Origin: Escherichia phage slur07
DNA length: 64,000 bases
Strand: one strand, 5' to 3'
Sequence record: NC_028780.1
Part shown: positions 2,989-4,713 of the stretch, piece after piece
Numbering within the stretch: the first letter of the stretch is position 1
Layout: the number at the start of each line of letters is the position of its first letter
The notes under the pieces: model-generated
The model's input: only the letters and a program-made list of their open reading frames with translations
What the model was told of the DNA's origin: nothing
Database searches by the model: none
Made by a program: the position numbers and the translations under genes

Positions 2989-3477
2989 ATGAATATATTT
3001 GAAATGTTACGTATAGATGAAGGTCTTAGACTTAAAATCTATAAAGACACAGAAGGTTATTACACTATTGGCATTGGTCATTTGCTTACTAAAAGTCCAT
3101 CACTAAGCGTTGCTAAATCTGAATTAGATAAAGCTATTGGGCGTAATTGCAATGGTGTAATTACAAAAGACGAGGCTGAAAAACTCTTTAATCAGGATGT
3201 TGATGCTGCTGTTCGCGGAATTCTGAGAAATGCTAAATTAAAACCAGTTTATGATTCTCTTGATGCTGTTCGCCGCTGCGCATTGATTAATATGGTTTTC
3301 CAAATGGGAGAAACCGGCGTGGCAGGATTTACTAATTCTTTACGTATGCTCCAACAAAAACGCTGGGATGAAGCAGCAGTAAATCTAGCCCAATCTAAAT
3401 GGTATCGTCAGACACCTAATCGCGCGAAACGCGTAATCTCAACATTTAAAACAGGAACTTGGAAAGCGTATATATGA
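2989..3477 (+). CDS. e: endolysin (T4 lysozyme)
   Basis: 162 aa; [33 protein letters not shown] matches T4 lysozyme nearly residue for residue. Confidence 0.97.
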
Positions 3478-3755
3478 AAACATATAGTGAATTTTTATCA
3501 GAATCTATTCTTAACGAAGCTACTGACACATTTGCAACTAAGCTAGGTGCAGCTTTGGTTGAAGCTGAAAGTCTATTAGCACGTATTTCTGAACTTGCTA
3601 GTAAGATAGATACTCGCAAATTTGAACGTACCAGCGATATCGTTAAGCTTGAAGCCTTGTTGCGTATGTGCGATAAACCAGAAGAAATCGCTAAGAACGG
3701 CTCGCTAATGAAACAACGTCTTGAAAAATATATTTCAGGCGCTTCAGAAAAATAG
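3474..3755 (+). CDS. internal protein with capsid-targeting sequence
   Basis: N-terminus [10 protein letters not shown] (CTS with LxE cleavage motif at 8-10); ATGA overlap with e. Confidence 0.7.
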
Positions 3756-3756
3756 T

Positions 3757-3786
3757 GTTTACTTCCTCCAAGGACTTTGATACTAT
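3757..3786 (+). promoter_or_regulatory. T4-type early promoter
   Basis: GTTTAC 3757-3762, 18-nt spacer, TACTAT 3781-3786. Confidence 0.5.
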
Positions 3787-3813
3787 ACATTCATCAACTA
3801 CTTGGAGGAAATT

Positions 3814-4230
3814 ATGACTCGTATCAATTTAACACTTGTTTCTGAACTGACCGACCAACATCTTATGGCTGAGTATCGTGAATTGCCGCGTGTTTTTGGT
3901 ATAGTTCGTAAACATGCGGCAAATGGTAAGCGGGTTAAAGATTTTAAAATATCTTCCGAGTTTATTTTAGGCTCTGGTCATGTTACGTTCTTTTACGATA
4001 AGTTAGAATTTTTGCGAAAGCGTCAATCAGACATTATAACGGAATGCTTAAAACGTGGGTTTAGTATAAAAGATACTGAAGTTCCTGACATCAGCGATAT
4101 TCCAGCAGAATGGAAAAATGATTATAATCCATGCAAATCAGCTATTAAATTGAGTCAACAACGACTCGATGAAAAAATTTTAATGAAGCCACACTGGTAC
4201 AAGTATTACGGCAAAAATATTTACATTTAA
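3814..4230 (+). CDS. denV: endonuclease V (pyrimidine-dimer DNA glycosylase)
   Basis: 138 aa starting [12 protein letters not shown]...; matches T4 DenV length and sequence as recalled. Confidence 0.9.
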
Positions 4231-4239
4231 AGGAAACAT

Positions 4240-4713
4240 ATGAAAACATATCAAGAATTTATTACTGAAGCAGCTATTAATTCTCAAATTATTGCTGAAT
4301 CTTTTACTGATCTTTTGAAATTTAAAAAAGGTCAAAAAATCACTGCTGTATTGGATGATGGTACAGAAGTTGAGATGGATGTACAGGGATATAATTATGC
4401 AGTAGATGGAAAACTGTATAATAAATCTCATGCTAAATTTGATTCATTTGACGACTTTGTTAATACAGTTGAAGATGAAAAAACTCGTAGATCCATTGCA
4501 ACTGGTGATGCTAAGGTTCTTATGGCACACGGCCATGAACGCATTCGCGCTAAGCAGAATAAAATGGGCGAAGATAATTTCGCATTAGTTGGTTATCAAT
4601 CTGGTAAACAAACTTATGGTTATCAGCGTACTGCTACCATGTATAACAAAAATGGTAAAATCGCTTTCGTGAATAGTAAAGGTTCTGTTCAGTACGTCAA
4701 ATCATTCAAATAA
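4240..4713 (+). CDS. internal protein with capsid-targeting sequence
   Basis: 157 aa, N-terminus MKTYQEFITEAAINSQ (T4 IP-type CTS, ITE cleavage motif). Confidence 0.75.
   Translation: MKTYQEFITEAAINSQIIAESFTDLLKFKKGQKITAVLDDGTEVEMDVQGYNYAVDGKLYNKSHAKFDSFDDFVNTVEDEKTRRSIATGDAKVLMAHGHERIRAKQNKMGEDNFALVGYQSGKQTYGYQRTATMYNKNGKIAFVNSKGSVQYVKSFK

Follow-up and report, generated by a model that had tools for sequence, protein, structure and literature searches.

Internal proteins are the earliest counter-defence of the T-even phages, as they arrive with the DNA, before phage gene expression. T4 Ip1, Ip2 and Ip3 were reported in 2025 each to inhibit one distinct GmrSD-type type IV restriction enzyme (PMC12373910). 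For targeting, also of foreign proteins, residues 1-10 of T4 IPIII are enough, and gp21 cuts at L/I-x-E; mutagenesis of IPIII has shown that Y4 and F7 matter for targeting, and position 8 and E10 for processing by gp21 (PMC9026906). The locus considered here lies in a stretch of 64,000 nucleotides (nt) from Escherichia phage slur07 (NC_028780.1), hereafter the window, which is a segment of a Tequatrovirus (T4-like) genome. Two open reading frames (ORFs), starting at 3474 and 4240 and flanking denV, had been picked out in an earlier note as both opening with a T4-type targeting sequence, and this is confirmed. Their products, termed IP_A (93 amino acids, aa) and Ip4 (157 aa), are in all likelihood ordinary T-even internal proteins that are trimmed, packaged and injected as likely anti-defence cargo, with IP_A imported from a Mosigvirus.

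Targeting sequences, protein families and probable packaging

The genes at the centre of the locus are as follows:

2989-3477, + strand: e (T4 lysozyme), 162 aa; Pfam Phage_lysozyme
3474-3755, + strand: IP_A, 93 aa plus stop; phrog_3499; start codon overlapping the stop of e (ATGA)
3814-4230, + strand: denV (endonuclease V, pyrimidine-dimer glycosylase), 138 aa; Pfam Pyr_excise, 6e-14; phrog_1183, 2e-62
4240-4713, + strand: ip4 (Ip4/IpIV), 157 aa; Pfam DUF7412; phrog_3155

The length of 94 aa previously given for the ORF at 3474 has to be corrected to 93 codons plus the stop. Y4, F7, a Leu or Ile at residue 8 and E10 are present in both N-termini, and the (L/I)xE site that had been placed at residues 8-10 is there in each protein, as LSE10 in IP_A and ITE10 in Ip4. 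The ip4 product opens MKTYQEFITE, where T4 IPII and IPIII both open MKTYQEFIAE. A six-frame scan of the 64 kb for MKT[YF]xEF gave three matches, all of them at ORF starts (IP_A, ip4 and an ORF at 48978), a result that should not be due to chance, the rough expectation being well under 0.01. At the DNA level, identity between IP_A and ip4 is limited to the first 12 nt, with the targeting and cleavage residues kept at the protein level.

Candidate gp21 sites in IP_A are LSE10↓S and LNE15↓A. In an alignment of the IP_A/Ip5 family, (L/I)xE15 is invariant and E10 is variable; Ip5 proteins that lack E10 and retain the invariant E15 must therefore be cut at E15, and the family pattern suggests that trimming of IP_A may also occur at residue 15. 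A comparable cut, after residue 19, is presumed for T4 IPI. The motifs in Ip4 are ITE10↓A and IAE20↓S, and both E10 and E20 are invariant across the Ip4 family.

Evidence for packaging comes from CsCl-purified virions of the Klebsiella phages ValerieMcCarty03 and ValerieMcCarty04, in which 40 proteins were identified with high confidence; gp127/119 is one of them, at 66/66 peptide-spectrum matches (PMC13119998, Table 3). This protein (VMC263_127, 159 aa, adjoining e) was verified by translation to be an Ip4 ortholog with 69% identity. Supplementary Data S2 of the same study holds 66 rows for the ortholog, with 0 covering residues 1-12, and 3 of the rows are the peptide R.LATVGVMTESVGSNLLK.F, residues 13-29; the IpII ortholog of ValerieMcCarty03 was found in virions with 1/26 peptide-spectrum matches (PMC13119998). 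The lack of peptides from residues 1-12, together with the detection of residues 13-29, fits a cut at E10 and argues against efficient cutting at the second Glu. A main cut of Ip4 after E20 was considered and rejected, as virion peptides of the ortholog span E20, and the second motif, IAE20↓S, is probably not used. Complete Tequatrovirus genomes carry genes 21 and 22 (prohead core). Both genes lie outside the window, and about 2 kb of the locus is 99% identical to such complete genomes: bases 2900-4900 are 99.3% identical to vB_Eco_EL, Geo, slur03, slur08 and slur14, and 99.0% identical to Kha5h.

The 157-aa protein is a member of the already catalogued Ip4 family. Pfam DUF7412 is matched over positions 1-157 of 158, with 318.5 bits (1e-95) where the cut-off is 27, and phrog_3155 at 1e-101. 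The annotation is Ip4 or IpIV in K3, T2, RB14, PP01, Kha5h and ime09; in Sf21 it reads 'similar to phage T2 Ip4'. Ip4 occurs in 469 phage records, of which about 305 are at least 95% identical and about 160, in Klebsiella, Salmonella, Serratia and related phages, are 60-80% identical; among relatives down to 61% identity, 64 columns are invariant. In distant members the targeting sequence takes the variant form MNF(E/K)xFLNES. When 1.84 billion representative proteins were searched with the Ip4 profile, 4 matched at E<1e-10, hence no wider family. The predicted structure has a flexible N-terminus followed by a mixed beta/alpha fold (predicted local distance difference test score, pLDDT, 78), and its sole neighbour among predicted viral structures is Ip4 of Enterobacteria phage K3 (UniProt Q38388, 98% identity).

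Similarly, the 93-aa protein belongs to the already catalogued Ip5/RB69ORF127c family. IP_A matches phrog_3499 at 1e-46 over 85/85 profile positions, and RB68 Ip5 falls in the same family at 4e-50; identity to Ip5 of T2, RB70 and RB68 is 48-52% over the whole length, with in-frame indels. Counterparts of IP_A are annotated as RB69ORF127c or 'internal head protein', and it is 98-100% identical to the Mosigvirus protein. The AlphaFold2 (AF2) model is a three-helix bundle (pLDDT 80). Sequence and fold searches of the PDB found no relatives of IP_A, and neither Ip4 nor IP_A has sequence relatives with solved structures. Judged by sequence, both are real genes under selection.

Mosaic origin of the locus

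For the lineage comparison, the window was set against Sf21 (Tequatrovirus, T2-type) and the Mosigviruses Shf125875 and phi25-307. The segments compare as follows:

2989-3380, e: 97.4% identical to Sf21; 76-77% to the Mosigviruses
3381-3884, + strand, imported Mosigvirus-type patch (final ~95 nt of e, the whole of IP_A, the spacer holding the denV promoter/ribosome-binding-site region, first ~70 nt of denV): largely absent in Sf21; 98.0-98.2% to the Mosigviruses
3885-4230, denV: 97.4% to Sf21; 65-67% to the Mosigviruses

Within the patch, 58 informative sites are of Mosigvirus type and 1 is of Tequatrovirus type; outside it, 188 are of Tequatrovirus type and 6 of Mosigvirus type. The lineage switches at 3375/3381 and again at 3876/3885. 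A Mosigvirus-like patch between Tequatrovirus-like flanks therefore points to import of IP_A by homologous crossovers within e and denV. The most likely course, as read from these alignments, is that an RB69-like Mosigvirus supplied the IP_A gene to a locus of T2/RB14/Sf21 type (e-denV-ip4-vs.8), and recently. In 212 records the e-IP_A-denV block of Mosigvirus type is found contiguously; the e-IP_A-denV-ip4 arrangement of the window is found in 20 GenBank/RefSeq records, representing 16 distinct phages. Import also accounts for the ATGA overlap of e and IP_A and for the C-terminus of e, which here reads ...TWKAYI (162 aa) compared with ...TWDAYKNL in T4 (164 aa); e is otherwise ~97% identical to that of T4 except in the final ~95 nt. 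The C-terminus of denV is of T2 type (...GKNIYI). The locus thus provides a clean, datable case of cargo spread, in which a cassette of ~500 bp passed from Mosigvirus to Tequatrovirus via e/denV homology.

RB69-type phages arabinosylate their cytosines (PMC13326640), and the window encodes an alpha-glucosyltransferase (AGT) at 30327-31526 on the + strand (PF11440, 4e-237). The IP_A cassette therefore crossed between phages with different DNA sugars, and the presence of AGT implies glucosylated DNA, which is a substrate for type IV restriction. A T4-type beta-glucosyltransferase gave no tblastn match in the window when an approximate query sequence was used, though the T4 position should be spanned; AGT without a beta-glucosyltransferase match would fit a T2/T6-like glucosylation pattern.

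On the other side of denV, the boundaries of ip4 are marked by two further features:

4213-4272, + strand: internal-protein 'handle', made up of the final 18 nt of denV (encoding KNIYI and the stop), leader AAGGAAACAT and ~33 nt at the start of ip4, which encode its targeting sequence
4726-4818, + strand: spacer 3' of ip4, where T4 homology resumes; matches the T4 denV-vs.8 spacer

Since T4 homology resumes at 4726, ip4 represents an insertion or deletion relative to T4 that falls exactly at the denV stop/spacer. The handle recurs almost unchanged at the 5' flank and beginning of T4 ipII and of the Ge15 internal-protein gene, and T4 ipIII shares part of it; internal-protein genes of the ipI locus have a common leader that is different from AAGGAAACAT. 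Leader and targeting-sequence DNA together thus serve as a portable 5' homology patch, an idea proposed for these loci by Repoila et al. 1994, as cited in PMC3012670. The T4 ipII 5' flank (NC_000866 locus extract ~4720-4760, - strand) holds AAAAATATTTACATTTAA, which is the denV 3' end (KNIYI) here, in Sf21 and in Ge15; the denV of T4 itself ends otherwise (KAIYA). Either T4 ipII formerly lay 3' of a denV of T2 type (compare ipII in Shf125875), or, in the T2-type phages, the denV end was overwritten by the internal-protein leader.

The arrangement around e and denV varies from phage to phage:

T4 (Tequatrovirus): e-ipIII-ipII-denV
Sf21, T2-type (Tequatrovirus): e-denV-ip4, with nothing between e and denV
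Ge15 (Tequatrovirus): e-denV-IP(phrog_3966)-ip4
This window: e-IP_A-denV-ip4
Shf125875 (Mosigvirus): e-IP_A-denV-ORF125c-ipII
phi25-307 (Mosigvirus): e-IP_A-denV plus four ORFs, of which the first three were translated and all have the targeting sequence, one being an IpIII near-identical to that of T4; the fourth extends beyond the locus extract
ValerieMcCarty03 (Jiaodavirus): e-ip4-ipII-like, with no denV between

RB69-like phages carry two to four targeting-sequence genes 3' of denV (phi25-307 locus 2737-4249; Shf125875 locus 2731-3358). The IpIII and IpII proteins in these arrays are nearly identical to those of T4 amid core genes of 65-77% identity, so that internal-protein cassettes appear to have been exchanged between genera repeatedly. 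In ValerieMcCarty03 (locus 5298-6767), the ip4 ortholog follows directly after e, with stop and start codons adjacent, and is itself followed by the IpII ortholog.

Expression, proposed anti-defence role and alternative explanations

Late expression could start upstream of e, where the following features were found:

2496-2951, + strand: nudE, upstream of e
2955-2962 and 2968-2975, + strand: two T4-type late-promoter motifs, TATAAATA, 5' of e

The TATAAATA pair are the sole late-promoter motifs near the locus. A scan found no terminator-like site on the + strand between e and ip4, and late read-through from these motifs into IP_A, denV and ip4 is therefore plausible. In a scan for sigma-70-type promoters, shuffled sequences scored as well, and hence there was no enrichment.

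In the mechanism proposed, IP_A and ip4 would be transcribed with e, denV and the surrounding genes, IP_A being translationally coupled to e by the ATGA overlap and ip4 presumably using the standard leader AAGGAAACAT. The N-terminal targeting sequence (Y4, F7) would bind the scaffolding core of the assembling prohead, as has been shown for T4 IPIII, and gp21 would then cut after the Glu of (L/I)xE, at E10 in Ip4 and at E10 and/or E15 in IP_A, where the motif is present. Mature IP_A and Ip4 would stay in the DNA-filled head and be injected with the genome and, by analogy with T4 Ip1, Ip2 and Ip3 as the best precedent, might neutralise an immediate-acting host defence in the cell.

Several observations weigh against IP_A and Ip4 being packaged anti-defence cargo. 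The ip4-10 genes of T4-like phages gave no reproducible inhibition with a panel of GmrSD variants (PMC12373910, Suppl. Fig. 9), the ip4 and ip5 alleles assayed not necessarily being those of the window. The virion proteomics concern a 69%-identical Ip4 ortholog from another genus, and none were found for the IP_A/Ip5 family. In addition, no late promoter lies directly 5' of ip4; mature IP_A (~8.6-9.2 kDa) is near-neutral and not clearly basic, which sets it apart from other internal proteins, its isoelectric point (pI) being 6.3 (cut at E10) or 8.1 (cut at E15), compared with 9.0-9.7 for T4 IPI-III; and neither the IP_A nor the Ip4 model has an informative structural match, so that no hint of mechanism is available. 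Open-access main texts make no mention of a function for Ip4 or Ip5.

The earlier description of these genes as hypervariable anti-restriction cargo consequently stands in its first part, a variable slot with at least six architectures, and is weakened in its second, the argument for anti-restriction being one of analogy and ip4-10 having given no reproducible effect on the GmrSD variants assayed. Inhibition of GmrSD by IP_A and Ip4 would be at best analogous to that by Ip1-3. It can be suggested tentatively that Ip4 and IP_A inhibit defences other than the GmrSD enzymes blocked by Ip1-3, or GmrSD clades that lay outside the panel sampled. On that reading, the recent movement of IP_A, at 98% DNA identity, from an arabinosyl to a glucosyl phage would suggest a target that is independent of the cytosine sugar.

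A first alternative is that IP_A and Ip4 are packaged and that their main role is structural, in DNA charge neutralisation or head assembly. Each T4 internal protein is basic and abundant, at ~300 copies, and loss of IPIII halves the rate of head assembly (PMC9026906). Mature Ip4 (~16.5 kDa) is also basic (pI 9.1-9.3), and the absence of reproducible anti-GmrSD activity among ip4-10 would agree with such a role. Nevertheless, internal-protein genes are dispensable and are swapped among phages and genera, a pattern of arms-race cargo and unlike that of assembly factors. Moreover, a near-neutral IP_A would be a poor DNA counter-ion, and all three T4 internal proteins are specific restriction inhibitors, so that a mainly structural role seems unlikely.

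Considerably less probable again is the view that the N-terminal motif is a recombination scar or handle of mobile cassettes, and that one or both proteins, IP_A especially, act unpackaged in the producing cell. The leader and the targeting-sequence DNA, both conserved, fall where cassettes join, a third such ORF (48978, at the T4 61.1 position) belongs to the early primase region and carries no internal-protein annotation in the records seen, and the want of proteomic data for IP_A or Ip5 would also allow this view. However, ten motif residues suffice for packaging foreign proteins, and virions contain the Ip4 ortholog in abundance, minus its N-terminus. Furthermore, the targeting and cleavage residues are conserved in the protein even where the DNA differs, IP_A and ip4 having 12 nt in common.

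If the tentative reading of Ip4 and IP_A as inhibitors of other defences, or of other GmrSD clades, is true, either protein could represent a new inhibitor architecture, as their folds have no informative match. Ip4-Ip10 and their relatives remain orphans, and the 16 sequenced phages that carry an Ip5-family protein together with Ip4 in this arrangement offer starting material for a target search, which bears on host-range prediction for therapeutic T4-like phages.

Neighbouring features and comparison with known systems

Downstream of ip4 lies one further gene:

4867-5406, + strand: vs.8 homolog (MRTFLTGP...); phrog_1488; start uncertain

The spacer between ip4 and vs.8 (4726-4870) is relatively G+C-rich and 97% conserved with T4. 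No RNA-structure signal was detected over 4714-4870 (fold z = -0.24), and a search of 3300-5100 against Rfam returned no family, the sole match being a sub-threshold snoRNA. The annotated length of vs.8 is 219 aa in T4 and 189 aa in Kha5h, and the ORF finder gives 195 aa here; the start is placed at 4819 by the ORF finder and at the equivalent of 4837 in the Kha5h annotation. An 8-nt indel relative to T4 shifts the frame upstream of vs.8, which explains why the annotated starts disagree, and the common start is probably MRTFLTGP at 4867. Two antisense ORFs, at 3446-3790 (- strand, 114 aa) and 4180-4431 (- strand, 83 aa), were treated as spurious, being opposite conserved genes. They overlap IP_A and the denV/ip4 junction, respectively, and are uncalled in related records; both are probably artefacts of AT-rich coding sequence.

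The third ORF with the targeting motif, 48978-49142 (+ strand, 54 aa, MKTYKEFIKEDMVAGDSGGNPENISTGTTSGAVVNKGPEQIPKKKKEESKEKEE), is situated between spackle/61.2 and the primase gene 61. It is annotated as 61.1 in T4T, belongs to phrog_1823 and has relatives in 1395 phage records. Residues ~7-38 resemble the region of the gp23 major capsid protein around its maturation cleavage site, which in gp23 of Acinetobacter phage 133 reads FLAE↓AEIAGDHGYNPTNIASGQASGAITNIGP, with 17/32 residues identical by eye. The product could imitate the cleavage junction of gp23 or serve as a decoy for it, or else it could be a small peptide targeted to the head.

Comparison with the T4 proteins bore out two further claims of the earlier note. 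The mature parts of the two proteins are unrelated, a BLASTP check giving no match between IP_A and Ip4, and gene order differs from that in T4, which is e-ipIII-ipII-denV-vs.8 when checked on NC_000866 and e-IP_A-denV-ip4-vs.8 here. Mature IP_A and Ip4 gave no BLASTP match to T4 IPI, IPII or IPIII; neither a full-length alignment to IPII or IPIII nor a conserved order was seen. PHROG places all of the proteins in separate families (IP_A 3499, Ip4 3155, IpI 4363, IpII 7857, IpIII 5341), and in hhalign profile-profile comparisons alignment was restricted to the first 8-13 residues. A remote homology of Ip4 to IpIII, for which hhalign gave 65 columns at 64% probability, was rejected as an artefact carried by the targeting sequence; mature IpIII alone scored 12.4 against Ip4, with a shuffle mean of 12.7 and 102/200 shuffles as good. 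That IP_A and ip4 are the T4 ipII and ipIII orthologs rearranged around denV, as the same targeting sequence and neighbourhood and the sizes (93 vs 100 aa, 157 vs 193 aa) might suggest, retains next to no probability and is already refuted by sequence comparisons, since the PHROG families differ, BLASTP and hhalign align the targeting sequence alone, the IpIII mid-region behaves as do shuffled controls, and true IpII and IpIII orthologs are found elsewhere and are nothing like IP_A or Ip4.

The locus adds no new kind of element. What is new here is the Mosigvirus import with its breakpoints, the handle common to ip4 and T4 ipII, the cleavage-site pattern of the families and the link to virion proteomics, and these additions are small. 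With T4 IPI*, IPII (Ip2) and IPIII (Ip3), the two proteins share the targeting sequence, the gp21 site, the same or an adjacent locus and small size, and T4 ipII has leader and targeting-sequence DNA in common with ip4 here. However, the mature sequences of T4 IPI-III have no detectable homology to IP_A or Ip4, and IP_A is not clearly basic; the T4 proteins inhibit specific GmrSD enzymes, whereas ip4-10 were negative on the panel tested. Alt and other gp21-processed head cargo of T4 offer a looser parallel, in that they lose a propeptide by cleavage at L/I-x-E and are both packaged and injected, as would be expected by analogy here; Alt differs in being a large ADP-ribosyltransferase with a recognisable fold, IP_A and Ip4 having no recognisable catalytic domain.

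The nearest known relatives are those of the same families. Ip4 of K3 (Q38388), T2, RB14, RB32, PP01 and Kha5h is 98-100% identical to the window protein, differing by 1-2 residues, and is encoded in the same place after denV. For IP_A, Ip5 of T2, RB70 and RB68 shares the targeting sequence and the invariant (L/I)xE15, whereas Ip5 proper is encoded at the ipI locus (57B to trna.4), has another 5' leader and is 8 residues shorter. RB69ORF127c of Mosigvirus also lies between e and denV, and IP_A differs from it in its setting, a Tequatrovirus backbone in place of the usual Mosigvirus home.

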